Assembly: GCA_026954325.1 (NCBI GenBank)
Contig: JAIXKK010000145.1
Span: 260 to 64,259, forward strand
Direction of reading: 5' to 3'
Length of the DNA stretch: 64,000 bases
Origin: Bryobacterales bacterium
GTDB taxonomy: Bacteria; Acidobacteriota; Terriglobia; Bryobacterales; Bryobacteraceae
Under the pieces are notes generated by a model. That model had not been told where the DNA came from. It saw nothing but the letters and a program-made list of their open reading frames with translations, and searched no databases. The position numbers and the translations under genes are program-made. Each line of letters starts with the position of its first letter. Position 1 is the first letter of the stretch. This document shows positions 5,314 to 61,408 of the stretch, piece after piece.

Positions 5314-5779
5314 ACTGCCGGCGCTGTTGGTTTCGACCTTCAAAGCCCTTGCTTCCAGGATAAACCGTGACGGGTTACAATATGGGATTGGATTCATCGG
5401 GAAGAGGGGAATTATCACCTTGGCAGACGAAAAAGCAACCAGCGGGAAGATTTACAGCGCGGAGTACATCGGCAGCGGCACGTTTATTATCAGCAAGCCG
5501 CCGAGGAAGAAGAAGAAGATCCAGCAGAGCCGCGTGAGGAACCCGCGCCGGGGAAGCAGGAAGTAGCCGGTTGAGTCCTCCGGGCGATCCGGCTCGAGTG
5601 GTAGGACGGACGGGGGTTCTGGCGGGACCGGCAGGGGGTTGGAAAAGCGGGGTGTTTTCGGTGGGACCGGATCTGCCCTCGGACAACCCCACATTAACCG
5701 GCCGCCGTTTGGTTTCCCGCCTGTTCGTTTTTCAACTCATTCTAAACATTCGAGATAAAATTCTCGTTCCGGTGTCACC

Positions 5780-7081
5780 ATGAAAATTACCGCCCTTCAT
5801 CTGCATCCCATCGCGGTGGCGGATCCGCCGTTGCGCAGTTCCTACGGGTTGCATGCGCCCTACGCCATCCGGACTATCGTGGAGATCGAGACCGACGAAG
5901 GAATTCGTGGGATAGCGGAGACTTACGGCGGTGAGCAGCCGCTCAGCGCGCTACGGGCGGCGGAGCCGAAGCTGATCGGGCGGGATGTTTTTCAGTTAAC
6001 GCGGCTGTGGATGGAGTTCGAGGCGCTGGCGGCGGAGGGAGACCGGAGCCAGACATGGATGGTCCCGGGAGAAAATCCCATGGACCAGCATGCGCGGACG
6101 TTTGCCGCCATCGAGTTTGCCTGTCTGGATGCCATCGGGAAAGCTCTGAACCAGCCGGTATGCGATCTGCTGGGCGGGCGGGCGCGCGACGAGGTTGCCT
6201 TTTCCGCCTACCTGTTCTACAAGCACGCGGGCGGCGGCGGATTGGGGGACGATGAGCGGGAGGACGAATACGGGGAGGGTCTGACTCCCGAGGCGATGGT
6301 GCGGCAGGCGAAGGATTTCATCGCCAGGTACGGCTTCCGGGAGATCAAGTTGAAGGGCGGCGTGCTCGACCCCGAAGTGGAGATTGAGACGATCCGGGCG
6401 CTGCGGCGGGAGTTTGGGCCGGCGGCGCCGCTGCGGATTGATCCAAACTGCGCCTGGAGCGTCGATACATCCGTGAAGGTGGGCGAGGCGCTGGCGGAGG
6501 AGCTTTCCAACGGCGGTTATCTCGAGGACCCGTGCGCGACGATTGAGGGGATGGGCGAGGTGCGCCGGCGGCTGCTGGCGCGGGGAATTGACACCCCGCA
6601 GGCGAGCAATGTCGCGGTGACGGCCTTTCAGCACATTCCGGTGGCGCGGAAGCACGATGCGGTGCAGATTGTGTTGTCCGATCCCCACTATTGGGGTGGA
6701 ATGCGGGCGCAACAGCAATTGGACCACTTCTGCCACGTGTTCGGGATGGGGGTGTCGATGCATTCGAACAACCACCTGGGGGTGAGCCTGATGGCCATGA
6801 CGCACGCCGCGGCGGCATGTCCGCATCTGACGTACGCCTGCGATACTCACTATCCGTGGCAGACGGCGCGCGACGAGGTGGTGGCCGGAGGACGCATCCC
6901 GTTTGTGAACGGATGCGTGCGGATTCCTTCGAAGCCGGGGTTAGGCGTGGAATTGGATTACGACCAGTTGGCGCGGCTGAAGGAGCGCTACGAGGCGCTG
7001 CCGTACCGCAAGCGGGATGATGAGGCGGAGATGCGGAAGCGGGTGGACGCGAACTGGAAGCGGGTTCTGCCGCGGTGGTAG
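5780..7081 (+). CDS. enolase-superfamily dehydratase, glucarate dehydratase (GudD)-like
   Basis: Near-collinear with E. coli GudD as I recall it: KLKGGVL...LRIDPNCAWS...YLEDPC...LSDPHYWGG...HSNNHLGVSLMAMTHAAAA...PGLGVELD. Confidence 0.85.
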   Translation: MKITALHLHPIAVADPPLRSSYGLHAPYAIRTIVEIETDEGIRGIAETYGGEQPLSALRAAEPKLIGRDVFQLTRLWMEFEALAAEGDRSQTWMVPGENPMDQHARTFAAIEFACLDAIGKALNQPVCDLLGGRARDEVAFSAYLFYKHAGGGGLGDDEREDEYGEGLTPEAMVRQAKDFIARYGFREIKLKGGVLDPEVEIETIRALRREFGPAAPLRIDPNCAWSVDTSVKVGEALAEELSNGGYLEDPCATIEGMGEVRRRLLARGIDTPQASNVAVTAFQHIPVARKHDAVQIVLSDPHYWGGMRAQQQLDHFCHVFGMGVSMHSNNHLGVSLMAMTHAAAACPHLTYACDTHYPWQTARDEVVAGGRIPFVNGCVRIPSKPGLGVELDYDQLARLKERYEALPYRKRDDEAEMRKRVDANWKRVLPRW

Positions 7082-7089
7082 CGTAGCCC

Positions 7090-7600
7090 CAGGAGGGACC
7101 GGGGCGGCGGTGTCGCGGCTTATAATCTGACCGCGCCTTACCGCACGGAACACCGCCGCGCGGCATTCTTCCATGGGAAAATAACAATCCTCCGGAGCCG
7201 GCCTGGCATCCCGCCCCTCTCACACCAGCCGCTGCCTCCCCATCCCCCCGCCGCCGGATTCCCAGTTTTCCCAGAAATTGCCCCGCTTTCCGAACGTATT
7301 CCCCCGATTGTCGCGAACTCGGACCCATCACCGGCGTCAGACTCCCCTCATGAAAATACGCATGGTGCGCCGCCGTCGCCGCCGACTTCCCCCACTGCCG
7401 CGTGCAATTCAACGCCACCCGCCGCGGCGGCCGCTCGATCAACCGCTCCAGCGCCCCGTCCGCGGAAATCCGAGCGCCTCCCGGGCGAACAGCGCCGCAT
7501 TCACCGCCCACCTAACGCGCGTTCCCTGCTCGGCTTCTTCCAAGGCAGCCGGCGCCGCCGGCCGCACCTCCGGCCGTCGCTCGAGCGTCGCCGGCAGCGC
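7090..7600 (-). pseudogene. phage terminase large-subunit remnant (N-terminal ATPase part, frameshifted and truncated)
   Basis: Minus-strand frames read LFAREALGF, then after a frameshift ALERLIERPPRRVALNCTRQWGKSAATAAHHAYFHEGSLTPVMGPSSRQSGEYVRKAGQFLGKLGI. RQWGKS resembles the T4 gp17-type terminase Walker A (SRQLGKT). There is no intact ORF and the remnant runs into the gudD-like stop. Confidence 0.5.
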
Positions 7601-7704
7601 CCCCCTCCTCGCTCTCCTGTCCCCGCATCACCGGCCCGCTCCAGTCAATCCCCAGCCCGTCCGTTCAACGGCTGGGTTACCCTTTGTGAATAGAGTTCCA
7701 TGTA

Positions 7705-8772
7705 ATGAAACGGATACCATTCCTCGTCTTTCTACTTGCCATGACTGCCGCCGCGCAAGAACCGACCATCGCCATTGTGGGCTTGAGGCATTCCCATGTT
7801 TGGGGACATTTCGGCACGATGCTGGCCGGCAAGCCGGCACGGCTGGTGGGCATTGCGGAAACGATTCCCGGCGTGATTGCGGAGGCCAAGCGCCGGGGCG
7901 CGCCGGATTCGCTGTTCTACACGGACTTCGTGAAGATGCTGGACGAGCGCAAGCCGGCGATGGTATGGGCCTTCGTGGAAAACAACCGGCATCTGGAAGT
8001 GGCGCAGGCATGCGCCCAACGGAAGATTCACGTAATTTTCGAAAAGCCGCTGGCGGCGAGTCTCGCCGATGCGATGCGGATTCGCCGGCTCGCGCTGCAA
8101 CACGGCATTTACGTGATGACGAACTATCAGATGGCGTGGTGGGGCTCCAATTACGCCGCAAAGGAGGTTGCCGATTCGGGCGCGCTGGGGCAGGTGTGGC
8201 GGGTGCGCGGCATTGTGGGGCACGGCGGTCCGGGCGGCGGGCAGGGAGGACTGGGGAAGACGTTTTTCGACTGGCTGACGGACCCCGAGAAGAACGGCGC
8301 CGGCGCGCTGATGGACTTCGGCTGTTACAACGCGCTGTGGAGCCTGTGGTACCTGGGCAAGCCCCTGAGCGTGTACGCGGCCACGAATCAACTGAGGCCC
8401 GGCGAGTTCCCGAAGGTGGAAGACACATCGGCAATGATCCTGCGCTACAAGAACGGCGTGGGGATTTTTGAGGGAAGCTGGGATCTGCCGCGCGGCTTCC
8501 AGGACTTGGAGGTGTTCGGGCGCGAGGGCAGCGTGACCATGGTGAACGGCAAGGTGGAGGTGCGCAAGGGGAAGGGACCGGCGGAAGAAGCGGCCATCGC
8601 GCCGCTGCCGGCGGAGCGCTCCGCGCCCGTTGCCTACATGGCGCACTGCATCCGGATTCACCGCCCGCCCGAGGGACTGGTGGCGATGGACATCAACGTG
8701 GACGTGGTGGAGATTATCGAGGCCGCGAAGCGCTCGGTCAAGGAAGGCAAGGCGATTTCGCTGCCGCAATAG
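7705..8772 (+). CDS. secreted Gfo/Idh/MocA-family oxidoreductase
   Basis: Signal peptide MKRIPFLVFLLAMTAAAQ. Rossmann N-terminus IAIVGLRHSHVWGHF. EKPLA motif (VIFEKPLAAS) typical of the family. Confidence 0.8.
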   Translation: MKRIPFLVFLLAMTAAAQEPTIAIVGLRHSHVWGHFGTMLAGKPARLVGIAETIPGVIAEAKRRGAPDSLFYTDFVKMLDERKPAMVWAFVENNRHLEVAQACAQRKIHVIFEKPLAASLADAMRIRRLALQHGIYVMTNYQMAWWGSNYAAKEVADSGALGQVWRVRGIVGHGGPGGGQGGLGKTFFDWLTDPEKNGAGALMDFGCYNALWSLWYLGKPLSVYAATNQLRPGEFPKVEDTSAMILRYKNGVGIFEGSWDLPRGFQDLEVFGREGSVTMVNGKVEVRKGKGPAEEAAIAPLPAERSAPVAYMAHCIRIHRPPEGLVAMDINVDVVEIIEAAKRSVKEGKAISLPQ

Positions 8773-8786
8773 GGGGAGGAGACCAC

Positions 8787-9988
8787 GCTTGTCCTTTGGC
8801 GCGCGAGCCTGGGTGACGGTGGGCCTGCTGTGGGTGGCCGGGATGTTGAACTATCTCGACCGGCAGGTGATTTTTTCCGTAATTCCGTTGATCCGGCGCG
8901 ATGTGCCGCTTACCGATGTGGAAGTGGGCCTGCTGGGAACGCTGTTTTTCTGGGTGTACGCGGTGTGCAGTCCCGTGGCGGGCTTTCTGGCGGACCGGTT
9001 CGGACGGAAGCGAGTCATCGTGTTCAGCCTTTGCGTGTGGTCGGGGGTGACGTGGCTTACGGGACATGCGCGGACGCGCGAGGAGCTGCTGGCGGCGCGG
9101 GCGTTGATGGGGATCAGCGAGGCCTGCTACCTGCCGGCGGCATTGGCGCTGATTGCGGCCTATCATTCAGGGAGCACGCGATCGAAAGCGACAGGGCTCA
9201 ATTTCAGCGGCATCTACACGGGTATCGTGATCGGCGGCGTGGGCGGCGGATGGATGGGGGAGCACTACGGGTGGCGGTTCGTCTTCACGCTGCTTGGCGT
9301 GGTGGGCGTGGCGTACAGCGCGGTGCTGTTTTTCGCGCTGCGGGAGCCTGCCGGAGCGCGCGAGAACGGGAACGGGATTCCCTTTTGGAAGGCGGCGCGG
9401 CACGTGTGGACGCTCGCCGGGTTCCCGGTGCTGCTGGCTGTATTCGCCGCGGCGTCGGTAGGCAATGCGATCGTCTACACGTGGCTGCCGCTCTACCTTT
9501 ATGAGAGATTCGGAATGACGCTGGCTGAAGCGGGGTTCGCCGCGACGTTCTGGGTGCAGGGGGCGAGTTTTGCCGGGATCCTGGCGGGCGGTTGGCTGGC
9601 GGACCGGTGGGCGCGCACGAGCGGCCGCGGACGCGCGCGGACACAGGCGCTGGGGATGTTGGCCGCCGCTCCGTTCCTGTTCCTGACGGGAGCAACGAGC
9701 CTGGCGCCGCTCCTGGTGGCGGGGTTGGTTGTGTTCGGAGTGGGCCGGGGGATGTTCGACAGCAACGCGATGCCGGTGCTGTGCCAACTGGCGAAGCCTG
9801 AACTGCGGGCGACGGGGTACGGGATTCTCAACATGGCGGGCACGGTGACCAGCGGCATCACCGCGTTGGCGGCGGGGGCGATGAAGTCGCGGATCGGGAT
9901 TGGCGGGTCGCTCGAGGTTGCGGCGGTAATTTTACTGGTTTCGGCGGTGTTTTTGTGGCGGATGGAGGTGGGGGGCACGGAGGAGTGA
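8787..9988 (+). CDS. MFS transporter (sugar-acid/anion permease-like)
   Basis: MLNYLDRQVIFSVIPLIRRD and LADRFGRKRVIV MFS signatures, about 12 helices. Start placed at TTG 8787 after GGAGGAG, because the upstream part of the ORF overlaps the oxidoreductase. Confidence 0.82.
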
Positions 9989-49303: not shown

Positions 49304-51085
49304 ATGGCCAATTCCAGCAAAGATCCGGATCCATCGAACAAGCCATCAGCATCCAAGCAGGGCGGGCGGAAGGAACTTTCGATGGAGATGCGACTGCTCC
49401 TGACGTTCATTCTCATGGGCGCGGTGCTGTTTCTCACTCCCTACCTCATGAAGACGACGGCTCCTCCGCCGCCGGCAAAGAAAACCGAACCGGCGGACGC
49501 CCGGCAAGCGGCGCCGAAAGAGGCTTCCGGGGAGGTCAGGCAAAGCCCGCCGGCGGCGCCGTCACAACCGCCGCCCGCCGCGGCGCCGTCACAACCGCCG
49601 CCGGGCCAGGTGGTTGCCGAGCGGCAGGATGACGCCATCATCCTGGAGACCGATCTCTACCGGGTGCAGTTTTCCAATCGCGGCGCGGTGGTCCGCGGTT
49701 GGGTACTGAAGAAATACCGCGACAACGCGGGGAAGCCCGTGGAACTGGTGAACCCCGTGGGAGGAACGCAGCTTGGATTCCCGTTCTCCGTGCAGTTGAA
49801 GGGCGCGCAGGTAAGTCCCGGGCCTAATTCTGTTCTGTATGTGGCGAAACGCTCCGGCGACGGCCTTACGCTCTCGTTCGAGTACTCTGCCGGCAAGCTC
49901 TATGTGAAGAAGACGTTCGCCTTCGAGAAGAATCGTTATCGCGTCCAGTTTTCGAGTGAGATCAGCGACCAGGGACGGACCATTCCTCACCTTGTGGCGT
50001 GGCGCGGCGGTTTCGGCGATTTTTCGGTCAGCAACACCCTTTCGACGCAACACACGACTTATTTCGACACCACCGACAACAAACTGATCGTGAACGACGT
50101 GGGGAAGGCGAAGAACGGGCCATTGACGGTGAGCGGCAGGTTCAACTTCGCCGGCATCGAGGACACCTATTTCGCCGCGGTGGTGTTGCCGCCGGCGGGT
50201 TCCACCCTGGAGGTGGAAACGCTGAGCGATAAACTGCCGTTCGTGGCGGAACAGAACAAGGAAGAGCCGCATATCGGGGTGGCGCTCGGCGGGGAAGGAG
50301 TGAACCAGGCGCTGCTGTTCGTGGGGCCGAAGGACATCGATGTACTTCGCTCGCTCGATCCGAAGTTGGAGCAGATGGTGGACTTCGGGTGGTTCTGGTT
50401 CCTCGCCAAGCCCCTGTTTGCGTCTCTGAACTACGTCAACGACAAGTTCATTCACAACTACGGCTGGGCGATCGTAGTGGTCACCATTCTGATCAACATG
50501 CTGCTGATGCCGCTGAAAATTTCCAACATCAAATCGATGAAGAAGATGTCGCAACTTCAGCCGCAAATTCAGGCGATCCAGGCCAAATACAGCAACATGC
50601 CGATGCGCGATCCGCGCCGCCAGCAGCAGCAGCAGGAGACGATGGATCTGTACAAAAAGCATGGGGTTAATCCGCTGGGCGGATGTGTTCCGATGGCGCT
50701 CCAGATGCCGTTCTTCTTTGCTTTCTACAAAGTGCTCATGGTCGCCATTGAATTGCGCGGCGCGCACTGGCTGTGGGTGACCGATCTTTCCCAACCCGAG
50801 CATCTGGCGATTCGCATTTTGCCGGTGGCCACCATCGCCACGCAGTTTCTCATGCAGAGGATGACGCCGAGCACCACCGCCGACCCGCAACAGCAGCGCA
50901 TCATGCAGTTCATGCCGCTGATGTTCATCTTCATTTTCTACAGTGTGGCCAGCGGACTGGTGTTATATTGGTTGACTGGCAACCTGGTCGGCATTGCCCA
51001 GCAGTATTTCTTCAACAAGACGATGGGCGTGGGTGCTCCGGCCGCGGTTACAGTGGCGCCGCCAAAGAAAAGCGGCAAAAAATAG
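49304..51085 (+). CDS. yidC: membrane protein insertase YidC
   Basis: Large periplasmic domain followed by the conserved core GWAIVVVTILINMLLMPL...MKKMSQLQPQIQAIQAKY...NPLGGCVPMALQMPFFFAFY...YWLTGNLVGIAQQ. Confidence 0.93.
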   Translation: MANSSKDPDPSNKPSASKQGGRKELSMEMRLLLTFILMGAVLFLTPYLMKTTAPPPPAKKTEPADARQAAPKEASGEVRQSPPAAPSQPPPAAAPSQPPPGQVVAERQDDAIILETDLYRVQFSNRGAVVRGWVLKKYRDNAGKPVELVNPVGGTQLGFPFSVQLKGAQVSPGPNSVLYVAKRSGDGLTLSFEYSAGKLYVKKTFAFEKNRYRVQFSSEISDQGRTIPHLVAWRGGFGDFSVSNTLSTQHTTYFDTTDNKLIVNDVGKAKNGPLTVSGRFNFAGIEDTYFAAVVLPPAGSTLEVETLSDKLPFVAEQNKEEPHIGVALGGEGVNQALLFVGPKDIDVLRSLDPKLEQMVDFGWFWFLAKPLFASLNYVNDKFIHNYGWAIVVVTILINMLLMPLKISNIKSMKKMSQLQPQIQAIQAKYSNMPMRDPRRQQQQQETMDLYKKHGVNPLGGCVPMALQMPFFFAFYKVLMVAIELRGAHWLWVTDLSQPEHLAIRILPVATIATQFLMQRMTPSTTADPQQQRIMQFMPLMFIFIFYSVASGLVLYWLTGNLVGIAQQYFFNKTMGVGAPAAVTVAPPKKSGKK

Positions 51086-51094
51086 CCCTTTGGA

Positions 51095-51736
51095 ATGAAC
51101 GTGGCAGAGCCCTTTTATACACTTGATGAACACGGTCCCCGCATCGAGGAGTTTCTGGGAAAAATCGTCGATCTGGGCGGATTTGAACTCGATTTTGAAG
51201 TAGCGTCGGGAGAGAATCCGCATCCCGACATCGAAGATCCGGAACTGGTGGTCCGATTTTTCGGGCCGGACGTGGAACTGCTTCTGGCGAACAAAGCGGA
51301 ACTGTTGCTGGCGCTCGAGTACCTGACGATGGAAATGCTGCGGATGCCATCGGACCATCACGAAAGACTCTGCTTCGACGCCAACGATTACCGTATGCTG
51401 CGCATTGCCGAATTGCGGCTGAGCGCGACTACCGCCGCTGAAAAAGTGAAGCGCAGCAAACTCCCCTTCCGCTTCAGCCCCATGAGCAGCCGGGAGCGCC
51501 GGATTATACACCTGGCTCTGCGCAATGAGCCGGAAGTGCGAAGCGAATCCTCCGGGATGGGCCCGTTCCGCCAGGTGGTGATTTACCCCGCCGGCATGCC
51601 GGCGCCCCCGGAACCGCCGCATCAACCCTATGAACGGCGCGACCGGGACCGGGGCAGGGACCGCGATCGTAGCGGCCCGCCGCGCCGCGGTCCGGGCGGC
51701 GGCCGGGATCGTGGCCCGGGCCGGGGCCGCCGATAG
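51095..51736 (+). CDS. jag: Jag-family RNA-binding protein (KH + R3H)
   Basis: Position after yidC. R3H motif SSRERRIIHLALR. Low-complexity RDRDRGRDRDR tail. Confidence 0.85.
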   Translation: MNVAEPFYTLDEHGPRIEEFLGKIVDLGGFELDFEVASGENPHPDIEDPELVVRFFGPDVELLLANKAELLLALEYLTMEMLRMPSDHHERLCFDANDYRMLRIAELRLSATTAAEKVKRSKLPFRFSPMSSRERRIIHLALRNEPEVRSESSGMGPFRQVVIYPAGMPAPPEPPHQPYERRDRDRGRDRDRSGPPRRGPGGGRDRGPGRGRR

Positions 51737-51742
51737 TCTTGC

Positions 51743-53095
51743 TTGCGGCTTAACGACACCATCGCCGCCATTTCCACCCCCCCAGGCCGAGGCGGGATCG
51801 GGGTAGTGCGTCTATCGGGGCCCGGCGCGGCGGCAATCGCCGCGAATGTGCTGGATCTCCCGGCAACCACGGAATGGACCGGGTGGCGTAGCTTCCTCGC
51901 CGTGCTTCCCGACGAGCAGGGGGCGGCGGTGGATCACGTAGTGGTGACATTCTTCGCGAAACCACGCTCTTACACGGCTGAGGATGTGGTGGAGATCGCC
52001 TGTCACGGCTCGCCCGTGGTGTTGCGGCATTGCCTGGAGCGGGCCTGCCGGGCCGGCGCGCGTCTCGCCGAACCGGGCGAGTTCACGCTGCGCGCGTTCC
52101 TGAACGGCCGGATTGACTTGCCGCGGGCTGAAGCGGTGCGGGACCTGATCGAGGCCACCACGCTTTTTCAGGCGCGCGTGGCGGCGCGGCAGATGGAAGG
52201 CGCCGTGTCGCGGAGACTGGCTCCGTGGAAGAGCCGGTTGGTTGAATTGATCGCCCTGCTCGAGGCCGGCATCGATTTCGCGGACAACGACGTGGAGTTC
52301 GCCTCGAGCGGCGAGATTCTGAGCCGTTTGGCGCCGCTGCTGGCGGGACTCGAGAAACTCGCCGCCAGCTTCGCCTATGGGAAACTGGTGCATTCCGGAT
52401 TCACGCTCGCCATCGTGGGGCGCCCGAATGTGGGCAAGAGCAGCCTGTTCAATCGCCTGTTGGAGCAGGACCGCGCCATTGTTACGGAGATTCCGGGCAC
52501 GACGCGGGATACGGTTTCCGAATCGGCGTCTCTGTTTGGCATCCCCGTGAAGTTTCTGGATACGGCTGGAATCCGGCAGGCCCGGGACGTGGTGGAAAAT
52601 CTGGGCATCGAGCGAAGCTACCAGGCGATGGCGGACGCCGACTTGACCCTGGTGGTTCTGGATTTCTCCGCTCCTCTCACCGAAGCGGATACTGTGCTGC
52701 TGGCGAGGGCACGGGAGAGCGGGCGGGTTCTGACGGTGGCGAACAAGGGCGACCTGCCACGCCGCCTTTCCCTCGAGGAAGCCCATACCGTGGTTTCAGC
52801 GCTTACCGGAGAGGGGCTGGAGACGCTGCGGCGGAGCATTGGGGAGGCCTTGGGCCTCAGCGGCGAATTGGCGCCGGAATCGGGCTTTATTACGAGTCTG
52901 AGACATGAGCAGTTGCTTCGCGAGAGCGTGGAGGCCCTGGGCAACGCCCGCACCGCCGTGGAGTTGGGGATTCCCCACGAGATGCTGCTGCTCGATCTCT
53001 ACGCCGCGCTGCGGCCCATTGACGCCATCACGGGCGCCACTACGGCGGATGACATCCTGAACCGGATCTTTTCCACGTTCTGCATAGGGAAATGA
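51743..53095 (+). CDS. mnmE: tRNA modification GTPase MnmE
   Basis: [23 protein letters not shown]-domain [12 protein letters not shown]...DTAG...NKGD and the C-terminal CIGK. Confidence 0.94.
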
Positions 53096-53099
53096 GCGG

Positions 53100-53540
53100 T
53101 CACGGGGCGAGTTGCCTGCGCACGGAATCGAGCACGCCGTTGATGAACGGGATGGACTCCTCGCCGGCGAAGCGGCGCGCCAATTCGAGCGCTTCATCGA
53201 TCACCACGGCCGGGGGAGTGCTGCGCTCCATTATTTCGTAGACGGCCAACCGGAGGATGTTACGGTCAACCGCGGGCATCCGCTCGATGCGCCAGTTCGC
53301 GCTATGGCTGCTGATCTGCTCATCAATCCGCGCCGCGTGTCCCACCGTGCCCCGCACCAGCTCTTCCATAAAGGGATCATCCTCGCGCGGCGCATCCCCG
53401 GCGCCGGTTTCATGCTCGGACTCCCAACTATAGAGCGTTTCGTAATAGTTATCCACGGCGTCGCGAACCGGTAGTTTGCGCACGTCGAGCTGATAAAGAA
53501 TCTGTAAGGCTCGCTGCCTGGACCGGTGACGCGATGGCAT
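53100..53540 (-). CDS. nusB: transcription antitermination factor NusB
   Basis: SRQRALQILYQLDV...NWRIERMPAVDRNILRLAVYEI...AVVIDEALELARRF...FINGVLD. Confidence 0.92.
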   Translation of the reverse strand: MPSRHRSRQRALQILYQLDVRKLPVRDAVDNYYETLYSWESEHETGAGDAPREDDPFMEELVRGTVGHAARIDEQISSHSANWRIERMPAVDRNILRLAVYEIMERSTPPAVVIDEALELARRFAGEESIPFINGVLDSVRRQLAP

Positions 53541-53548
53541 TCGGTTGG

Positions 53549-54028
53549 CTACTTCATACCGCGAAGTTTTCGCATGAGGTTGGCCATCTCGATAGCGGTC
53601 ATGGCGGCATCGAACCCCTTGTTGCCGTGTTTTGCGCCCGCGCGGTCCGCGGCCTGTTCGACGGTGTTCGTGGTGAGCACGGCAAAGGCGACAGGCACTC
53701 CGGATTGCATGGCCACCTGTCCCAACCCCTTGGCGGCTTCGCCGGCGACATAGTCGAAGTGGGGGGTGTCGCCGCGAATGACTGCGCCCAGGCAGATGAT
53801 GCCGTCATAGCGGTTGGAGTTGGCCAACTCCCGCGCGGTCACCGGCATTTCCCACGAGCCGGGAACCCAAACCACGGTGATGTCATCTTCCGATGCGCCG
53901 GTCCGGCGCAGGGCATCGAGAGCGCCGGCGAGCAGGCGCTCCGTGATAATGCTGTTGAAACGCCCGGCTACGACGGCAAACCGTAGTCCTTTGGCGTCCA
54001 GATGTCCTTCAATGACGGAATGCGGCAT
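53549..54028 (-). CDS. ribH: 6,7-dimethyl-8-ribityllumazine synthase
   Basis: [21 protein letters not shown]...[11 protein letters not shown]...[21 protein letters not shown]...[10 protein letters not shown]. Confidence 0.94.
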
Positions 54029-54095
54029 TCTGTTTCCGTGGGGTGTGGCTGCTCACCTATGGGATAATTGAGCTTACACCAGATCATTCTACCGC

Positions 54096-55910
54096 ATGGA
54101 CCCAGCCTTCATCCGTAACTTTTCCATCATTGCCCACATTGATCACGGCAAGTCGACTCTTGCCGATCGTCTACTTGAAGCCACGGCGGCGTTGAGCGAA
54201 CGCGAGATGATGGAGCAGGTTCTCGATTCGATGGATCTGGAACGCGAGCGCGGCATCACGATCAAGGCGCACGCCGTGAGACTGAATTATCGCGCCGAGG
54301 ACGGCGTTCTCTACCAGCTCAACCTCATTGACACTCCCGGCCACGTCGATTTCAGCTACGAGGTTTCGCGCAGCCTGCAGGCGTGCGAAGGCGCTCTGCT
54401 GGTGGTGGACGCCTCGCAGGGCGTGGAAGCCCAGACGCTTGCCAATACGTACCTGGCGCTGCACCACAATCTGGAGATCATCCCGGTGATCAACAAGATT
54501 GACCTGCCATCGGCCGAGCCGGACCGCATCAAGGAGCAGATCGAGCAGGTGATCGGGCTCGATTCCTCGGGGGCGATCCTGGCGAGCGCCAAGCAGGGCG
54601 CCGGCATTCACGAGCTGCTGGAAGCGATCGTGCACCTGGTGCCTCAGCCCAAGGGCGATCCGGATGCGCCGCTGCGCGCCCTGATCTTCGATTCCTGGTT
54701 TGATCCCTACCGCGGCGTGATCATCCTTTTCCGCGTGATGGATGGCCGGATCCGCGTGGGGCAGCGGATTCGACTGATGTCCGCGGGGAAGGTCAGCGAA
54801 GTGGAGGCGCTCGGCTACCAGTCGCCTAAGCCTGTTCCGTTGCAGGAACTCTCCGCGGGCGAGGTCGGGTATGTGTTCGCCAATATCAAGACGGTTTCCG
54901 ACGCGCGCATCGGGGATACGATCACGGATGCCGAGAATCCCGCCGCCGAGGCGCTCCCCGGATTCGAGGAGATCAAGCCGATGGTGTTCGCGGGGCTCTA
55001 TCCGGTGGAGTCGCACGAGCATGGCCTGCTGCGCGATGCGCTCGAAAAGCTTCGTCTCAACGACAGCGCGTTCAACTTCGAGCCGGAAAACTCGGCGGCG
55101 CTGGGGTTCGGGTTCCGCTGCGGGTTTCTAGGCCTGCTGCATTTGGAGATTGTGCAGGAGCGGCTGGAGCGCGAGTTCAATATCGACCTTATCACCACGG
55201 CTCCGGGCGTCCGCTACCGGGTGACGAAGCTCGACGGCGAGGTGGTGGAGGTGGACAACCCCACGCGCTGGCCCGTGCAGGCCGAGATCAGGCAGATTGA
55301 AGAACCCATTATCGACGCCACCGTGATTACACGCGAGGAATATCTGGGGGAGATCCTGAAGCTGCTTGAAGAAAAGCGGGGGGAGCAGAAGAAATTCGAG
55401 TACATCGGCACGGGCCGCGTAATGCTGAATTACGAGCTTCCGCTGAATGAAATCGTGCTTGACTTCTATGACCGGTTGAAATCCGCCTCGCGCGGCTACG
55501 CCTCTCTCGACTACCACCTGGCGGGCTACCGCGTGTCGCCGATGGTGAAACTGGACGTGCTGGTGGCGGGCGACCCCGTGGACGCGCTGTCGATGATCGT
55601 GCACCGCGACTTCGCGTATGACCGCGGCAAGGCGCTGATTGAACGGCTGCGCAAGCTGATTCCCCGGCAGATGTTCGAAGTGGCGCTGCAGGCGGCGATC
55701 GGGAACAAGATCGTGGCGCGGGAAAACATTCCCGCGATTCGCAAGAACGTGCTCGCCAAGTGTTACGGCGGCGACATTACGCGCAAGAAGAAGCTGCTGG
55801 AAAAACAGAAGGAAGGAAAGCGGCGGATGAAGCGCGTGGGCCGGGTGGACATTCCACAGGAGGCGTTCCTGGCGGTGCTTCAGGTGACGAAGAAGGAATC
55901 CGAGGATTAG
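54096..55910 (+). CDS. lepA: elongation factor 4 (LepA)
   Basis: [38 protein letters not shown] and the LepA-specific C-terminus [25 protein letters not shown]. Confidence 0.96.
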
Positions 55911-55915
55911 GCGCC

Positions 55916-57103
55916 ATGCGAGTCTCCCTTGCTTCGATTTCGGTTTCCGGGTTCAAATCGATTGCGGAGGAGCAGACAATTGAGGTACGTCCGCTGACGA
56001 TCCTGGCCGGGGCCAACAGTTCGGGCAAGTCGAGCATGATGCAGCCGCTTCTGCTCATGAAGCAGACTATTCTGGCGCCGTTCGATCCTGGTGGGTTGTT
56101 GCTCAACGGGCCGAATCTTGGTGTTCGGTCCGGATTGGAAATTATGGCTCTTGGCAGGGCGATCCGGCGCCGGGATTGGTTCCAGGTCCGGCTGGAACTT
56201 ACAGATCAAAGTCGAATGGATCTGCAATTCGGTGATCTGTACGAATCGCAGATCACGGTGAAGATGTCTTCGTTCCAACCTGTGGAGAAACCGGAAGGAA
56301 CGATTCTGAAGTATCACCGGTGCTTGCCCGTCCATGTGGTGGAGGGCTCAGAGGGCGAGGGTCTGTTCTATCAGCCGAAGCCGGCGCGACACTCTGCAAG
56401 CCTATTAGGGAGAATGATTCACCTTCCGGGATTGCGAGGCCGCCTGGACGGATTGTACGGAATCGCGGGTGTGAGCGGGACGATTGAGGGTACTTTTGAA
56501 CATTATGTGGGCCGGTTGGTCAATCAGTGGCAGGAGGGAGACAGCCAAAGGTTGAGGGCTCTGGGGCTTGCCCTCGAATTCATAGGCCTCGCGCGCTCCG
56601 TGGAAGCAAAGATGTCTGGCAACGAGATTGAATTGTTCGTCAGCCGTAGACTGTCCGGGGAAGGTGACGTGGTTCCCTTGCGAAATGTGGGTCTTGGAGT
56701 GTCGCAAGTTCTGCCCATCCTGGTTGCGCTGCTTCACTCTGAGGAGGGCGACGTGTTGTACATCGAACAGCCGGAACTCCATCTCCACCCATTGGCCCAA
56801 ATCCGCTTGACAAAGCTGATCGCTGATGCCGCCAACCGTGGTGTGCGGATCGTGGCCGAGACACATTCTTCGTTGATGCTCCGCGAGGTCCAGACCATGA
56901 TCGCTCAGGGTGACTTGTCTCCGGAGATTGTCCGGCTGCACTGGTTTCAACGGGATCCGGGAAGCGGAGAGACAGCCGTCACCACAGCGGAACTCGACGA
57001 GAACGGCGCATTCGGCGATTGGCCTGAAGACTTTGACGCGATTGCCATTGATTCGGAGAAGCGCTATCTCGATGCCGTGGAAGCGCGGAGCAAGTATTCG
57101 TGA
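55916..57103 (+). CDS. ABC/SMC-type AAA ATPase (AAA_15/21-like with DUF3696-like C-terminus)
   Basis: VSGFKSI...LTILAGANSSGKSS (Walker A). NVGLGVSQVLPILVALL (signature-like). VLYIEQPELHLHP (Walker B/D-loop). AETHSS (H-loop). Tail ELDENGAFGDWPEDFD. Visibly lower GC than its neighbours. Confidence 0.8.
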   Translation: MRVSLASISVSGFKSIAEEQTIEVRPLTILAGANSSGKSSMMQPLLLMKQTILAPFDPGGLLLNGPNLGVRSGLEIMALGRAIRRRDWFQVRLELTDQSRMDLQFGDLYESQITVKMSSFQPVEKPEGTILKYHRCLPVHVVEGSEGEGLFYQPKPARHSASLLGRMIHLPGLRGRLDGLYGIAGVSGTIEGTFEHYVGRLVNQWQEGDSQRLRALGLALEFIGLARSVEAKMSGNEIELFVSRRLSGEGDVVPLRNVGLGVSQVLPILVALLHSEEGDVLYIEQPELHLHPLAQIRLTKLIADAANRGVRIVAETHSSLMLREVQTMIAQGDLSPEIVRLHWFQRDPGSGETAVTTAELDENGAFGDWPEDFDAIAIDSEKRYLDAVEARSKYS

Positions 57104-57567
57104 GTGAAAGAAAATCCAAGCGCCTTGTTATCGACGCCTGTGTCGCTCGCGCCGCCGGCGACAAGGAGCAGGGAATTTCATCGAAGTGCCGGCGCTTCCT
57201 TGACGAGACTTTGAGGATCTGTGATCGCATGGTGATGACTCCCAAACTCCGGCAGGAATGGAACAAACATCAATCGCTGTTTGCAACCAAATGGAGAGCC
57301 AGCATGATTGCCAGGAAAAAGATGGTTCCCATCCAGGATTCGGGAGATGTGACCTTGCTCATCGAAGTTCAGGATGCGGCTGAATCCGGTGCAGGGCGAC
57401 GGGAGATGACCAAGGATATCCACTTGATGGAAGCGGCGCTTGCCACGGATCACATTGTCGTCACTATCGAGCGCGATTCATTCGCGAGGTTTGAGCGGAT
57501 CAAGGCTAAGGTCCCTCGCCTCGCCGGTGTTCAAGTGTTCAATCCAACCTCCGGGAAGCCGCTGTAG
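57100..57567 (+). CDS. small PIN-like protein (inferred) coupled to the ATPase
   Basis: GTGA overlap with the ATPase stop. The acidic quartet is spaced as in VapC-type PIN domains: D12 (LVIDACV), E36 (LDETL), D106 (KDIHLMEAALA) and D126 (VVTIERDSF). The assignment rests on the motif pattern only. Confidence 0.55.
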   Translation: MSERKSKRLVIDACVARAAGDKEQGISSKCRRFLDETLRICDRMVMTPKLRQEWNKHQSLFATKWRASMIARKKMVPIQDSGDVTLLIEVQDAAESGAGRREMTKDIHLMEAALATDHIVVTIERDSFARFERIKAKVPRLAGVQVFNPTSGKPL

Positions 57568-57594
57568 ACACATGTGTCATCATATTCATTTCTC

Positions 57595-58725
57595 ATGGAA
57601 ACATTGAAGCCCGGTAGTCCCGAGGAACTGGCCGCCATGCTGGGCGAGGCCGGCTCGGCCGGGAGAGCGGTCGAATTATCAGGCAACGGGAGCAAGGGCA
57701 GGGCGGGAGGCTCCGTCGCGGCCGCTCAGACGCGCATTTCGCTTTCCGGTCTGGATCAGGTTCTGATGTACGAACCGCGCGATCTTACGGTGAGCGTGGG
57801 AGCCGGCATGCCGTATTCGCGCTTCACCGAAATGCTCGCCAAGGACGGCTATATGGTTCCGCTCGATCCGCCGTTTGCCTCAGAGGCGACAGTGGGAGGG
57901 GTGGTGGCGTCGAACTCGAGCGGGCCGCGGCGGCGTTTGTTCGGCACGGCGCGCGACCTGGTGATCGGCATGAAGTTCGCCACCATCGAGGGGAAACTGG
58001 TGCAGTCGGGCGGGATGGTGGTGAAGAACGTGGCCGGACTCGACATGGGGAAACTGCTGATCGGGTCGCTGGGCACGCTGGGCGCCATCGCCGTGCTCAA
58101 CTTCAAGCTGATCCCGCTGCCCGCTGCTTCGCGCACGTTTCTCTTCGAGTACGCCGGCCTCAACGAGGCGATCGCCCTTCGCGACCGCATCCTGCACGGT
58201 GTTTTGCAGCCCGTGGCGATCGATCTCTTGAATCCGCCCGCGACGCGGGGACTGGGGCGCAAGGGTTGGCTTGTGGCGATTGGCGTCAGCGGCAACGAGG
58301 CCGTGCTGCGCCGCTATGCGCGGGAACTGGCGGAGGGCGAGGCGGTGGAAGGAGAGGCGGAGCGCGTGTTCTGGGACTATGTTCGCGAGTTCACGCCACG
58401 GTTCCTGGCGGCGCGCGCGGATGGAGTGATGGTGCGGAGTTCGCTCACGCTGTCCGCGATGGAAGCGGCGCTGCAAGGGCTGCCCGGCGCGGTGGTGGCA
58501 AGGGCGGGGAATGGTGTCTGTTACTCCCATTGCGAGAGTGTCCGGGAGGCGCAAGGAGCGCTCGGGACGGGGCGGGCCGTGATGGAGTATGGGCCGGTTT
58601 CGCGCGATGCATCGCTCGTCATGTGGCCGCAAATTGACTCCGGCTTCCCGGTCATGCAAAGAATCAAACAGATGCTCGATCCGAAGAGTCTCCTGAATCC
58701 CGGAAGGTTCTATGGCCGCTTCTGA
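57595..58725 (+). CDS. glcE: glycolate oxidase FAD-binding subunit GlcE-like
   Basis: METLKPGSPEELAAML...VELSGNGSK...FAD_binding_4 pattern (VVKNVAGLDMGKLLIGSLGTLG). Followed by an overlapping glcF. The alternative GTG 57574 is unlikely. Confidence 0.82.
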   Translation: METLKPGSPEELAAMLGEAGSAGRAVELSGNGSKGRAGGSVAAAQTRISLSGLDQVLMYEPRDLTVSVGAGMPYSRFTEMLAKDGYMVPLDPPFASEATVGGVVASNSSGPRRRLFGTARDLVIGMKFATIEGKLVQSGGMVVKNVAGLDMGKLLIGSLGTLGAIAVLNFKLIPLPAASRTFLFEYAGLNEAIALRDRILHGVLQPVAIDLLNPPATRGLGRKGWLVAIGVSGNEAVLRRYARELAEGEAVEGEAERVFWDYVREFTPRFLAARADGVMVRSSLTLSAMEAALQGLPGAVVARAGNGVCYSHCESVREAQGALGTGRAVMEYGPVSRDASLVMWPQIDSGFPVMQRIKQMLDPKSLLNPGRFYGRF

Positions 58726-60010
58726 ATTGCCGGTTCTCCGGGATCTGGACAAGCCGCAACAGAAGGATTTGGACCGCTGCGTGCATTGCGGCCTGTGTCT
58801 CAACTCCTGCCCCACGTACCGGGTGCTGGGAGTCGAGATGGATTCGCCGCGAGGGCGCATCTACCAGATGGTGCAGGTACACAACGGCGCGGAGATCAGC
58901 GCCTCCTACCAGCAGCACCTGGACCTGTGCCTGGCGTGCCGGGGCTGCGAAACGGCGTGCCCATCCGGCGTACAGTACGGCCGGTTGATCGAGGCGGCGC
59001 GCGCGGAAATTGAAAACAGAGTGCAACGTCCGTTTCTGACGCGGTTGCTGCGGCGGTTCGTTTTCGGAAGCCTGCTGCCTTCGCCGGCGCTATTGAAAAT
59101 GGCGGCGGCGGGCATGTACGTCTATCAGAATTTCGGGCTGCAAGCACTCGCACGCGGTCTGGGCATCCTGAAGTTGATGGGGAAGATGGGGGAACTCGAG
59201 AAACTTGCGCCGCCGGCGGAGTTTCCTACTTTCTTTTCGGCGTATGGGAAGGTGTTTCCGGCGGAAGGCAAGCGCAGGCACAAGGTTGCCCTGCTCGGCG
59301 GATGCATTGCGAACATCAGCTTTGCCCGGCTGAATGAAGCCACCGTGCGCGTGCTTCAGAAGAATGGATGCGAAGTCCACGTGCCGCGGGGGCAGACATG
59401 CTGCGGGGCGCTGCACGTGCACTCAGGCATTCGCGAGGACGCGCGGCGGCTGGCGCGCCGGAACATCGATGCGCTGCTTGGCGAAGGCTTCGACGCGATC
59501 CTCACGAACTCGGCGGGCTGCGGTTCAACCCTGAAGGAATACAACGAACTGCTGGAACACGATGAGGCGTACAAGGCCGGGGCGGAGAAGTTCTCGAGGC
59601 TGGTGAAGGATATCAACGAGTTCCTTGCCGCCATCGGTCTCAATCCGCGCATGGGCAATCTGCCGCTGAGGGTGACCTATCAGGATTCCTGCCATCTGGC
59701 GCACGGGCAGAAGGTGCGCGCGGCTCCGCGGCAGTTGTTGAAGGCCGTGCCCGGGCTGGAGTTTCAGGAGATGCCGCTCTCCGATTTGTGCTGCGGCTCG
59801 GCGGGCATCTATAACGTGCTGCAAACCGGGATGTCGATGCAGGTTCTGGGACGCAAGATGGAACTGGCGAATTCCGTGCCGGCGAATGTCATTGCAACGG
59901 CGAATACGGGCTGCATGCTGCAACTACGCGCCGGAGTGGCGATGCACGGCAAGGGGCAACGCGTGGCGCACGTGATCGAAATCCTGGACGAGGCCTACCG
60001 GAAAGCATGA
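58712..60010 (+). CDS. glcF: glycolate oxidase iron-sulfur subunit GlcF-like
   Basis: Two 4Fe-4S motifs (CVHCGLCLNSCP, CLACRGCETACP) and two CCG domains (CCG...SAGCGS; CCGSAG...NTGCMLQL). Confidence 0.9.
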   Translation: MAASELPVLRDLDKPQQKDLDRCVHCGLCLNSCPTYRVLGVEMDSPRGRIYQMVQVHNGAEISASYQQHLDLCLACRGCETACPSGVQYGRLIEAARAEIENRVQRPFLTRLLRRFVFGSLLPSPALLKMAAAGMYVYQNFGLQALARGLGILKLMGKMGELEKLAPPAEFPTFFSAYGKVFPAEGKRRHKVALLGGCIANISFARLNEATVRVLQKNGCEVHVPRGQTCCGALHVHSGIREDARRLARRNIDALLGEGFDAILTNSAGCGSTLKEYNELLEHDEAYKAGAEKFSRLVKDINEFLAAIGLNPRMGNLPLRVTYQDSCHLAHGQKVRAAPRQLLKAVPGLEFQEMPLSDLCCGSAGIYNVLQTGMSMQVLGRKMELANSVPANVIATANTGCMLQLRAGVAMHGKGQRVAHVIEILDEAYRKA

Positions 60011-60039
60011 CGAAATTTCTGCTTCTGCCGGCGGCCGCG

Positions 60040-60290
60040 GCGGCGCAAACGCCGGAGCCGCCGCGGGCAAAGAGGCAAAAAGCAGTCTGGGCGGGCAGGC
60101 CGAAGACTTCTCCTACTTCCACAAGCAGATCCCGGGATTCTTTTGATGCCTTGGCGGAGGGAACGCCGCCAAAGGCTTCACCGCCGGGAATCACACGGCG
60201 GAGTTCGACGTGGACGAGGACGCGGCGATGTCGGGGGTGAAGACGGGCGCCGCCTTGCTGACGGCGGCTTTGGGCGGCGGCGGTTACACC
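60040..60290 (+). pseudogene. C-terminal remnant of an M20D-type amidohydrolase with an in-frame stop
   Basis: The frame reads SLGGQAEDFSYFHKQIPGFF, TGA (60144-60146), then LGGGNAAKGFTAGNHTAEFDVDEDAAMSGVKTGAALLTAAL. This is the typical M20D tail (EDFS-F...PG-F-LG...H...FD-DE-AL-G). The N-terminal roughly 300 aa are absent because glcF ends at 60010. Confidence 0.5.
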
Positions 60291-61408
60291 AATACCGTAA
60301 AGGCTGTTTCGGTACGCTCCACCGGGCGATATAGGGTATCACGTTCGACTGGTTCGCGGCCGGCCGCCTGGATTAACCGAAGCAGGTCGCCGCGCCGGAG
60401 CGATTGTGAAGTGGTGGCCCCGGCATCGTGGTAGATCTTTTCTTCCACCACCGTGCCGTCGATGTCGTCCGCCCCGAAGCGCTGGGCGACCTGGGCGATG
60501 CGCGGCGTCATCATGACCCAATAGGACTTGATGTGCGGGATGTTGTCGAGCATGAGGCGCGACACGGCGATATTCTTCAGGTCATCGAAGCCCGTGGTTT
60601 TCGCGATGTGCTGGAGCGGCGTGTTATCGGGATGGAAGGCGAGCGGAATGAACGTGACAAAGCCGTGCGTCTCGTCCTGCAGGGAACGAAGTTTTACGAG
60701 ATGGTCCATGCGATCGTCAGCCGTTTCGATGTGGCCGTAGAGCATGGTGCAATTCGACTTGAGCCCCGCCTGGTGGGCGATGCGGGCCACGTTGAGCCAC
60801 TCGTTGCCGTCGATTTTGTGATCGCAAATGATGCGGCGCACGCGTTCGCTGAAGATTTCGGCTCCTCCGCCGGGCATGGAATCCATGCCGGCCTCGCGGA
60901 GGCGCTCGAGGGTTTCACGGATGCCGATCTTCTGGCGCTGGGCGAGGTAGGAGATTTCCACCATCGTGAACGCCTTGAGGTGGACCCGCGGATAGCGCTG
61001 TTTGAGGCCGCGCAGCATCTGGCAAAACCAATCGAGCGTGAGTTCGGGGTGCAGGCCGCCGACGATGTGGAACTCGGTTGCCGCTTCGGAATAGCCCTTG
61101 CCGGCCACTTCCCACACCTGTTCCAACGACATCGTGTAGGCTTTGGGATCGCGAGCCTTCTTGCCGAAAGCGCACAGCCGGCAGGAAGCGACGCACACAT
61201 CGGTGGGGTTGATGTGGCGGTTCACATTGAAGAACGTGGTGTTGCCATGCAGACGCTCGCGCACGATATTGGCCATGTGGCCAATCGCCAGGATGTCCCG
61301 CGAGCGGTAAAGGGCCATGCCGTCCTCGAAGGTGAGCCGTTCGCCGGTCCGCACTTTTTCGAGGATGGGAAGCAAACGCTGATCTTCAAAATTGGGTTCC
61401 AGTTGCAT
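60284..61408 (-). CDS. radical SAM menaquinone (futalosine pathway) enzyme, MqnE/MqnC family
   Basis: RTGERLTFEDGMALY...FFNVNRHINPTDVCVASCRLCAF (CxxxCxxC). TIM-barrel radical SAM body. The adjacent UbiA-type prenyltransferase fits the futalosine context. I cannot separate MqnE from MqnC by eye. Confidence 0.8.
   Translation of the reverse strand: MQLEPNFEDQRLLPILEKVRTGERLTFEDGMALYRSRDILAIGHMANIVRERLHGNTTFFNVNRHINPTDVCVASCRLCAFGKKARDPKAYTMSLEQVWEVAGKGYSEAATEFHIVGGLHPELTLDWFCQMLRGLKQRYPRVHLKAFTMVEISYLAQRQKIGIRETLERLREAGMDSMPGGGAEIFSERVRRIICDHKIDGNEWLNVARIAHQAGLKSNCTMLYGHIETADDRMDHLVKLRSLQDETHGFVTFIPLAFHPDNTPLQHIAKTTGFDDLKNIAVSRLMLDNIPHIKSYWVMMTPRIAQVAQRFGADDIDGTVVEEKIYHDAGATTSQSLRRGDLLRLIQAAGREPVERDTLYRPVERTETAFTVLV

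Follow-up and report, generated by a model that had tools for sequence, protein, structure and literature searches.

HEC-03 (Hma-embedded candidate 03) of Pseudomonas cichorii (WP_025259138 and WP_025259137) is a two-gene system in which the gene of a DUF3696 ABC ATPase is followed by an overlapping gene for a VapC-like PIN protein of 157 amino acids (aa) (Payne et al. 2024, bioRxiv 10.1101/2024.01.29.577857). In E. coli the system reduces the plating of several phages, for which both genes are required, and it was left uninduced because of its apparent toxicity (bioRxiv 10.1101/2024.01.29.577857). Here we describe a cassette of two genes, gene 1 and gene 2, which lies between lepA and glcE in a 64,000-nucleotide (nt) stretch of Bryobacterales DNA (‘the window’; positions are those of the window), and which, to judge by homology, is a divergent, unannotated ATPase-PIN pair of the HEC-03 type. 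Since HEC-03 combines an ATPase with a PIN, and both proteins encoded here are homologous to it (the PIN remotely, by profile-profile comparison only), the architecture is already known. A sequence-only reading of the same DNA had recognized no named system in such a pair and had allowed only for HNH or TOPRIM nucleases as partners of ATPases of this kind. Both statements have to be given up: HEC-03 has exactly this design and protects against phages, and the NsnB-NsnC pair of Menshen likewise contains a PIN-fold domain.

Menshen (NsnA-NsnB-NsnC) was reportedly described by Millman et al. in 2022. Its ATPase NsnB carries a DUF3696 tail and is paired with NsnC, which consists of an N-terminal PIN-fold domain devoid of catalytic residues (‘inPIN’) and a C-terminal effector domain; in AlphaFold3 models, the PIN-fold domain is located between two DUF3696 tails (PMC12065111). 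PARIS (AriA-AriB) and Septu (PtuA-PtuB) resemble the present pair in combining an ABC ATPase with a separate nuclease subunit, which in these systems is held and regulated by the ATPase oligomer, and they are thus likely mechanistic analogues. VapC-type PINs, finally, cleave tRNA, rRNA or mRNA, and their known antitoxins are small DNA-binding proteins encoded upstream.

Gene 1 extends on the forward strand from the ATG at 55916 to the TGA ending at 57103 (395 aa) and gene 2, on the same strand, from the GTG at 57100 to the TAG ending at 57567 (155 aa). The genes overlap by 4 nt (GTGA), and the GTG start of gene 2 is located within this overlap. The lepA stop codon ends at 55910, which leaves a gap of 5 nt ahead of gene 1, and the ATG of glcE at 57595 leaves a gap of 27 nt behind gene 2. 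Upon recomputation, the two open reading frames (ORFs), their overlap and both gaps came out as first read from the sequence.

The product of gene 1 is an ABC ATPase whose head is of the SMC/Rad50/PtuA type; it has no coiled coil and ends in a DUF3696-type helix. The SMC/ABC-type layout proposed earlier is corroborated by its sequence motifs and by three kinds of comparison: (i) Pfam yields AAA_21 (2.2e-23) and AAA_15 (7.9e-23); (ii) PADLOC yields NsnB as best match (1.1e-52; 177.9 bits), along with an ATPase model labelled ‘HEC-03B’ (8.4e-35; 118.7 bits) and AriA (3.5e-26), with PDC-M55A also among the best; and (iii) Foldseek, when searched with the AlphaFold2 (AF2) model (pLDDT, the predicted local distance difference test, 88; predicted template-modelling score, pTM, 0.89), yields Rad50, SMC and PtuA (Septu/retron) as top matches at about 1e-12. 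A sequence search of solved structures revealed nothing close to the protein of either gene. The proposal of a WP-containing, DUF3696-like tail is likewise upheld: the WP is found at residues 369-370 within a tail of the form HWF..R...G.T...L..GAFGDWPEDF, which is followed in the model by a long C-terminal helix (residues 373-394), and Pfam DUF3696 itself matches weakly and below its cut-off (7e-4).

The nucleotide-binding motifs of gene 1 comprise a Walker A motif GANSSGKSS (residues 32-40), a signature-like motif G-L-G-V-S-Q (259-264), the segment LYIEQPELHLHP (281-292) with the Walker B motif Y-I-E-Q-P-E (282-287), in which E-Q replaces D-E, and an H-loop ETHS (315-318). By analogy with NsnB, we tentatively place R174 (in LPGLRG) at the Q-loop position. 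Across 65 homologues, the Walker A motif GANSSGKS, the arginine at the putative Q-loop position, the signature GxGVSQ and the H-loop ETHS are invariant. Their Walker B motif reads Y-(L/I)-E-Q-P-E, with E invariant and Q present in 58 of the 65, and the catalytic D-E dyad is therefore replaced in the homologues as well. The ratio of non-synonymous to synonymous substitution rates (dN/dS) of gene 1, computed against a sister strain, is 0.078. Since this value falls within the range of the neighbouring genes (0.018-0.115), gene 1 is taken to be under purifying selection.

Gene 2 is predicted with confidence to encode a stand-alone PIN-fold protein. Its AF2 model (pLDDT 91.4; pTM 0.85) exhibits the topology b1-a-a-b2-a-a-b3-a-a-b4-a-b5, that is, the five-stranded parallel alpha/beta/alpha fold of PIN domains, and most of the top 50 Foldseek matches in the PDB are VapC proteins, archaeal PINs, HARP RNase P, Nob1 and NYN domains, with a few unrelated Rossmann-type enzymes near the bottom of the list. 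The best match is 7vwo_A (E 2.3e-4; TM-score 0.64/0.69). Hence, the structural check suggested in the sequence-only reading returned the VapC-like PIN fold that it had proposed. At the level of sequence, no match above threshold was obtained in Pfam, NCBIfam, PADLOC (even at E<=1) or PHROGs, and the PADLOC check thus succeeded for gene 1 (NsnB, HEC-03, AriA) and failed for gene 2. The curated PIN-clan families that match below threshold are DUF4411 (0.038) and TIGR00028 (0.013; residues 74-137), and RNase_Zc3h12a is matched, likewise below threshold (0.039), by 4 of 35 members of the gene 2 family.

The putative catalytic residues of gene 2 are D12, E53, D106 and E124, plus D117; residue 9 is the first of the motif LVIDACV and residue 105 that of KDIHLMEAALATDHIVVTIERDSF. 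In the model, the first residue of the PIN tetrad comes after b1, the second lies in the helix that follows b2, the third where the helix preceding b4 starts, and the fourth after b4. Over 181 relatives, the acidic residue is retained in 173 (D12), 180 (E53), 181 (D106) and 172 (D117) sequences, and position 124 is D in 171, E in 7 and N in 3, the window copy having E. Of the four acidic residues singled out in the earlier reading, D12 and D106 are thus conserved, E36 and D126 are variable, and the conserved residues in their stead are E53 and the one at position 124. Because the canonical acidic positions are kept over 181 family members, gene 2 probably encodes a PIN with predicted nuclease activity.

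The gene 2 family comprises at least 2,326 cluster representatives (clusters at 50% identity; E<=1e-3), and gene 2 and its relatives consist of a PIN domain only (155-200 aa), with nearly all members of the family being stand-alone proteins of 170-200 aa. We fetched 95 related loci, namely 88 plus 7 more distant ones from viral contigs, and an ATPase of the same family is encoded directly upstream and on the same strand in 88/88 and 7/7 cases, respectively. These upstream ATPases are, for the 88 loci, 44-48% identical to gene 1. In 86 of 92 loci, the stop codon of the ATPase gene either overlaps the start of the PIN gene or precedes it by no more than 10 nt. The co-conservation of the pair, which had been named as a check, is thereby established, and ATPase and PIN evidently form one strictly linked unit with predicted translational coupling. 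A scan that was limited to a sequence pattern and to one genome per species (185,579 species genomes) detected 254 loci, mostly in cyanobacteria, and the pair is furthermore found in Acidobacteriota, Chloroflexota, Planctomycetota, Verrucomicrobiota, Poribacteria, Thiotrichaceae and Polyangia. All-against-all clustering of flanking ORFs, combined with Pfam and PADLOC scans of 128 flanking ORFs from 36 diverse loci, revealed no conserved third gene, and DUF262 (NsnA) was absent from the top families of these 128 ORFs.

Recurrent neighbours of the pair, namely GT2 (a family-2 glycosyltransferase), rpsB, tsf and an HSP70-like gene, represent lineage-specific synteny within cyanobacteria. The order GT2-ATPase-PIN-rpsB-tsf is observed in Nostocales, Coleofasciculaceae and Oscillatoria, and a divergent HSP70-like gene is located about 75 nt upstream of the pair in Microcoleus, Floridaenema and Argonema (loci L024, L029, L032, L035, L049, L051, L053, L054, L058, L059, L064 and L080, around 3500-9000 in each). 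In two other relatives (L004 3453-5999, 848 aa, and L075 3189-5999 from Poribacteria, 936 aa), the ATPase carries a long TPR-repeat protein as an N-terminal fusion, and in two more (L005 2829-4610 and L006 2015-4585) such a protein is encoded directly before it; the TPR part may serve these relatives as an additional sensor or adaptor. Between the 584-aa gene and the 593-aa gene that precede the ATPase in L001 and L005, the similarity is weak and TPR-like. Among other Bryobacteraceae, one metagenome-assembled genome (L081 4914-6444) has the ATPase split into two ORFs and a C-terminally truncated PIN of 149 aa, and another (L086 4776-6423) has an ATPase truncated to 327 aa and a C-terminally truncated PIN of 144 aa.

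Comparison with HEC-03 reveals correspondence in (i) locus design, that is, an operon of two overlapping or abutting genes with the ATPase first (HEC-03 genes at 322707-324092 and 324079-324552) and with a stand-alone PIN partner of about 160-180 aa that has a D-E-D-D tetrad; (ii) the ATPase, gene 1 being a homologous protein with a DUF3696 tail, GxNSSGKSS, a signature that reads GFGVSQ in HEC-03, E-Q-P-E-x-H-L-H-P and an (E/S)HS H-loop; and (iii) more remotely, the PIN, with the common N-terminal motif V(I/V)D(A/T)xVAxAA(G/N)G. Blastp aligns gene 1 with the HEC-03 ATPase (HEC-03A, WP_025259138) in two segments (8e-19 and 2e-6) that share EQPE and GxGVSQ, and the hidden Markov model of the gene 1 family matches an Aeromonas HEC-03A-like protein from end to end (155 bits). 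For the PIN, hhalign of the gene 2 family against the HEC-03 PIN (HEC-03B) family yields a probability of 94.5% (E 7.9e-8) over 109 columns, in which the catalytic residues D, E and D fall opposite each other, the HEC-03B family keeping the D-E-D-D tetrad as D/E5, E52, D110 and D129; the gene 2 family profile matches the single HEC-03B sequence weakly (E 0.013). The cassette differs from HEC-03 in that the link between the PINs emerges from profile-profile comparison only, at 15% identity, and in that most members of the gene 2 family contain an extra conserved C-terminal motif, WVNP...WL..GA. Moreover, the listed HEC-03B homologues are from Pseudomonadota, whereas the present family is found in cyanobacteria, Acidobacteriota, Chloroflexota and Planctomycetota, and the loci that we have seen are located outside Hma systems. 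An HEC-03-type pair (469-aa DUF3696 ATPase and 177-aa PIN) was also observed on a conjugative, pAsa9-like plasmid of Aeromonas salmonicida (NZ_CP085535.1; L105 3071-5699), where a gene of an RNA ligase family comes next and AbiEii and Hok/Gef genes are close by; hhalign of its PIN against the HEC-03B family yields 99.6%.

Gene 1 is also akin to NsnB of Menshen, with which it shares the DUF3696 tail, an arginine for the Q-loop glutamine, GxG for SGG, and a Walker B motif without D-E, and the downstream partner begins in both cases with a PIN-fold domain, which in Menshen two DUF3696 tails are predicted to clamp. In contrast to Menshen, Walker B has E-Q rather than E-N, lepA and not NsnA (ParB-DUF262 plus ParBDB) is located directly upstream, and gene 2 is a PIN alone, without a C-terminal BECR, Toprim or PLD effector and with the catalytic residues kept that inPINs have lost. 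A true Menshen locus included for comparison (L104) has the order DUF262-DUF3696-318 aa, and DUF262/NsnA was not seen beside any of the 95 loci, including the annotated L001-L007. The one NsnC compared, which is plasmid-borne, exhibits no sequence similarity to the gene 2 family. From PARIS, Septu and Gabija the cassette resembles only the ATPases AriA, PtuA and GajA: the partners there are Toprim (the Toprim/DUF4435 protein AriB; C-terminus of GajA) or HNH (PtuB) and not PIN, the ATPases of PARIS and Septu lack the DUF3696 tail, and no AriB or PtuB homologue is encoded in the cassette. With VapBC, gene 2 has in common the VapC-like PIN fold and the acidic tetrad, VapC toxins being the closest solved structures and TIGR00028 a weak match, but sequence similarity to VapC is below threshold, and the partner is not a VapB-type antitoxin but the 395-aa ABC ATPase encoded upstream. 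A further pairing of this kind of ATPase was observed on a plasmid of Tolypothrix sp. PCC 7910 (NZ_CP050441.1; L106 3437-5158), where the gene after that of an ATPase with DUF3696 tail and Walker B E-H encodes not a PIN but a 187-aa HD-domain protein; a limited literature search found no description of this pairing.

How did the cassette arrive between lepA and glcE? L096 (contig WBZY01001890.1) stems from a relative whose nucleotide identity is 87-90%; there, GAGAGC (6 nt) is all that separates the stop codon of lepA from the glcE ATG, and the cassette is missing. Blastn aligns window 53000-55911 with L096 2086-4995 (89.6% identity) and window 57594-60000 with L096 5000-7406 (86.8% identity), which places the empty-site junction at L096 4994-5001, equivalent to window 55911/57594. 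Because lepA is directly followed by glcE in L096, the cassette constitutes a presence/absence difference of 1,682 bp (window 55912-57593, no strand assigned). All other loci of the family, including those of other Bryobacteraceae, are found in unrelated genomic contexts, and the nearest ATPase relatives of gene 1 are 97% identical (same species group) and then at most 48%. Furthermore, the G+C content of the cassette is 56.2%, compared with a mean of 62.2% for the window (standard deviation 2.1%; 1,652-nt windows), which makes it the lowest-GC stretch of its size in the 64 kb: equally low sliding windows amount to 0.24%, and all of them overlap the cassette itself. Third codon positions (GC3) are likewise poorer in G+C, with 65% versus 78-81% in lepA, glcE, glcF and mnmE. 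Taken together, the empty site, the unrelated contexts elsewhere, the drop in identity from 97% to at most 48% and the difference in GC and GC3 support a horizontal insertion of the cassette into the intergenic spacer of an existing operon.

This agrees with the sequence-only reading, which had suspected horizontal acquisition into a string of housekeeping genes from the drop in GC and had asked whether lepA and glcE are contiguous in relatives, as they indeed are in L096. Its hand counts for two 60-nt lines of the cassette (34/60 and 29/60) are correct, whereas the count for a lepA line must be changed from 43/60 to 42/60. We found no meaningful direct or inverted repeats flanking the cassette, and no target-site duplication at the junction. 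The window contains no tRNA, and neither an integrase nor a transposase adjoins the cassette. The second lowest GC stretch of the window (49750-51400, about 52-56%) lies within an ORF of 593 aa (49304-51085), which is, by synteny, the counterpart of yidC in the sister-strain locus L089.

As for expression, a Shine-Dalgarno-like GAGGA (55902-55906, forward strand; read from the sequence) is located 9 nt before the ATG of gene 1 within the last codons of lepA, and a Shine-Dalgarno-like GGAG (57087-57090, forward strand; likewise read from the sequence) is located 9 nt before the GTG of gene 2 within the end of gene 1. The position of GAGGA within the 3' end of lepA implies that gene 1 would be co-transcribed and coupled with lepA. 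No promoter or terminator signal above chance was detected upon scanning 53900-60300, and no Rfam family was found in 53000-60500. Given these Shine-Dalgarno-like sites within the upstream genes and no promoter or terminator signal above chance, the simplest reading is co-transcription with lepA and glcE-glcF, in which case the two genes would be translationally coupled passengers in the lepA-glcE transcription unit.

Based on the evidence collected so far, we consider it fairly probable (about 60%) that horizontal transfer brought in the cassette as a self-contained module of the HEC-03 type, made up of an ABC ATPase with a DUF3696 tail and a PIN nuclease that is catalytically competent. We infer an anti-phage role from homology, and analogy with HEC-03, with the predicted NsnB4-NsnC2 complex of Menshen, and with PARIS and Septu suggests how complex formation, trigger and RNA target might be linked. 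In such a mechanism, the ATPase would form head-to-head dimers or tetramers, whose C-terminal helices would hold the PIN in an inactive state, and the replacement of D-E by E-Q in Walker B suggests that the ATPase might act as a slowly hydrolysing, ATP-latched switch. A trigger arising from infection or stress would be sensed via the variable inserts of the ATPase and, in some relatives, maybe via the adjacent or fused TPR protein. It would alter the nucleotide state and thereby release or activate the PIN nuclease, which would then cut RNA, probably tRNA, rRNA or mRNA, so that growth stops and the infection is aborted.

Several observations weigh against such an active defence module, and some of them concern the state of this very copy. 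Gene 1 lacks about 34 residues of insert 1 (395 aa versus a family norm of about 440 aa) and deviates at near-invariant positions (D257N, N176R/P177L and R293L). Gene 2 (155 aa versus about 180 aa) lacks W146 and the C-terminal segment of about 25 residues (VWVNP...WL..GA) that most relatives possess. Moreover, the sister strains (L089 9185-9651, L090 and L091, represented by GCA_009612875.1 and several Logan assemblies), which have the same order lepA-ATPase-PIN-glcE and an intact ATPase that is 97% identical, carry a frameshifted PIN gene: DNA alignment and three-frame translation of L089 reveal that the T at position 57220 (forward strand) is deleted in L089-L091, which shifts the frame after codon 40. 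To judge by the sequences, part of the population seems able to do without the PIN, or selection acts against it there, which would be expected if the effector is toxic. The present copy is possibly on its way to decay. The dN/dS of gene 2 against a sister strain is 0.39, with few changes. Its dS (0.063, window versus L089) is several-fold below that of gene 1 and the flanks (0.21-0.39); chance, the sites being few, could be responsible for this, as could a recent recombination or a constraint on the nucleotide sequence. That the cassette is already a decaying, non-functional remnant of a module of this type would fit the shortness of both proteins, the substituted ATPase positions, the missing PIN C-terminus, the frameshift in the sister strains and the split or truncated copies in L081 and L086. 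We nonetheless regard this as quite improbable in view of both frames being intact in the window and in L009, of all catalytic and nucleotide-binding motifs being present, of an ATPase dN/dS like that of housekeeping neighbours, and of two confident AF2 models. Other points speak against the assignment to HEC-03 or to immunity as such: the homology of the PINs is remote (15% identity) and the HEC-03 PIN model of PADLOC misses gene 2; D12 is replaced by N in 7 of the 181 relatives; the neighbours of the pair are mostly housekeeping genes with few defence matches (128 flanking ORFs, 36 loci); the cyanobacterial synteny described above is kept, which is unusually stable for a defence gene pair and atypical of mobile defence genes; and viral contigs seldom carry the pair (7 loci), while a tblastn search with gene 2 alone detected no copy on plasmids.

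Because of the housekeeping flanks, the cyanobacterial synteny and the rarity on viral contigs and plasmids, a toxin-antitoxin-like or a housekeeping role of the pair is possible. In the former case, the PIN would be the toxin and the ATPase its neutralizer in a chromosomal addiction module that persists selfishly or by post-segregational killing, or arrests growth under stress, without a dedicated anti-phage role. The VapC-like fold with its intact catalytic tetrad, the tight coupling of the genes, the mostly non-defence flanks, the apparent toxicity of HEC-03 upon induction, and sister strains in which the toxin gene is frameshifted and the putative neutralizer is intact and under purifying selection would all be in line with this view. 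We consider it unlikely: phage protection, for which both genes are needed, is what the sole tested homologue, HEC-03, provides; partners that depend on ATP are more typically found as sensors or switches; and the known VapC antitoxins are not 400-aa ABC ATPases. There is, moreover, some overlap between this notion and abortive-infection defence, and the two do not strictly exclude each other. A housekeeping or stress-related surveillance of RNA or translation, e.g. by ATP-gated cleavage of a tRNA or of a ribosomal substrate, with the copy in the window having been transferred laterally, would account for the synteny with rpsB-tsf and the HSP70-like gene, and for a large (at least 2,326 clusters) and almost entirely chromosomal family that here directly follows lepA. 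Such a role appears improbable to us considering the patchy distribution (254 loci in 185,579 species genomes by the pattern-limited scan), the presence/absence differences between close relatives, the pseudogene in the sister strains, the varying contexts outside cyanobacteria and the homology to a validated defence system, and the translation-related neighbours may be coincidental. One may also speculate, if with considerable reserve, that the pair is a distinct, ancient and vertically kept cyanobacterial module, located beside rpsB-tsf in several orders, for ATP-gated RNA cleavage in translation or stress, or else the ancestral active-PIN core behind Menshen, which would then have arisen from the two-gene core by inactivation of the PIN and gain of NsnA and a new effector. 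The converse derivation, in which the cassette would be what is left of a Menshen system after the loss of NsnA and of NsnC's C-terminal effector domain, could be advocated on the grounds that NsnB is the best PADLOC match of gene 1 and that the N-terminal PIN-fold domain of NsnC is predicted to bind DUF3696 tails. Yet NsnA stands beside 0/95 loci, no C-terminal effector is present, stand-alone PINs of about 180 aa span more than 2,000 clusters, the active-site tetrad is conserved unlike in inPINs, Walker B has E-Q as in HEC-03A, and the one NsnC compared is not similar in sequence. We thus reject this derivation: for the family it is refuted by these data, and for the present cassette it is exceedingly improbable.

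Our finding of a putative HEC-03-type pair in the window has implications for the family as a whole. If active, it would widen ATPase-gated PIN immunity of the HEC-03 type from a few Pseudomonadota to cyanobacteria, Acidobacteriota, Chloroflexota, Planctomycetota and other environmental phyla. Current defence finders miss this family because its PIN partner has no model. The family is noteworthy for its size and for escaping these tools, for two clean polymorphisms (the empty site and the pseudogene) and for its unusual cyanobacterial synteny. For the window itself, the cassette represents a clear case of a horizontally acquired insertion of known architecture, which is possibly decaying. Finally, the family provides a comparison set for the control of effectors by DUF3696-tailed ATPases, which comprises a probably active PIN, Menshen's combination of an inactive PIN with a nuclease, the HD-domain protein of the Tolypothrix plasmid and, in some relatives, fused or adjacent TPR domains.

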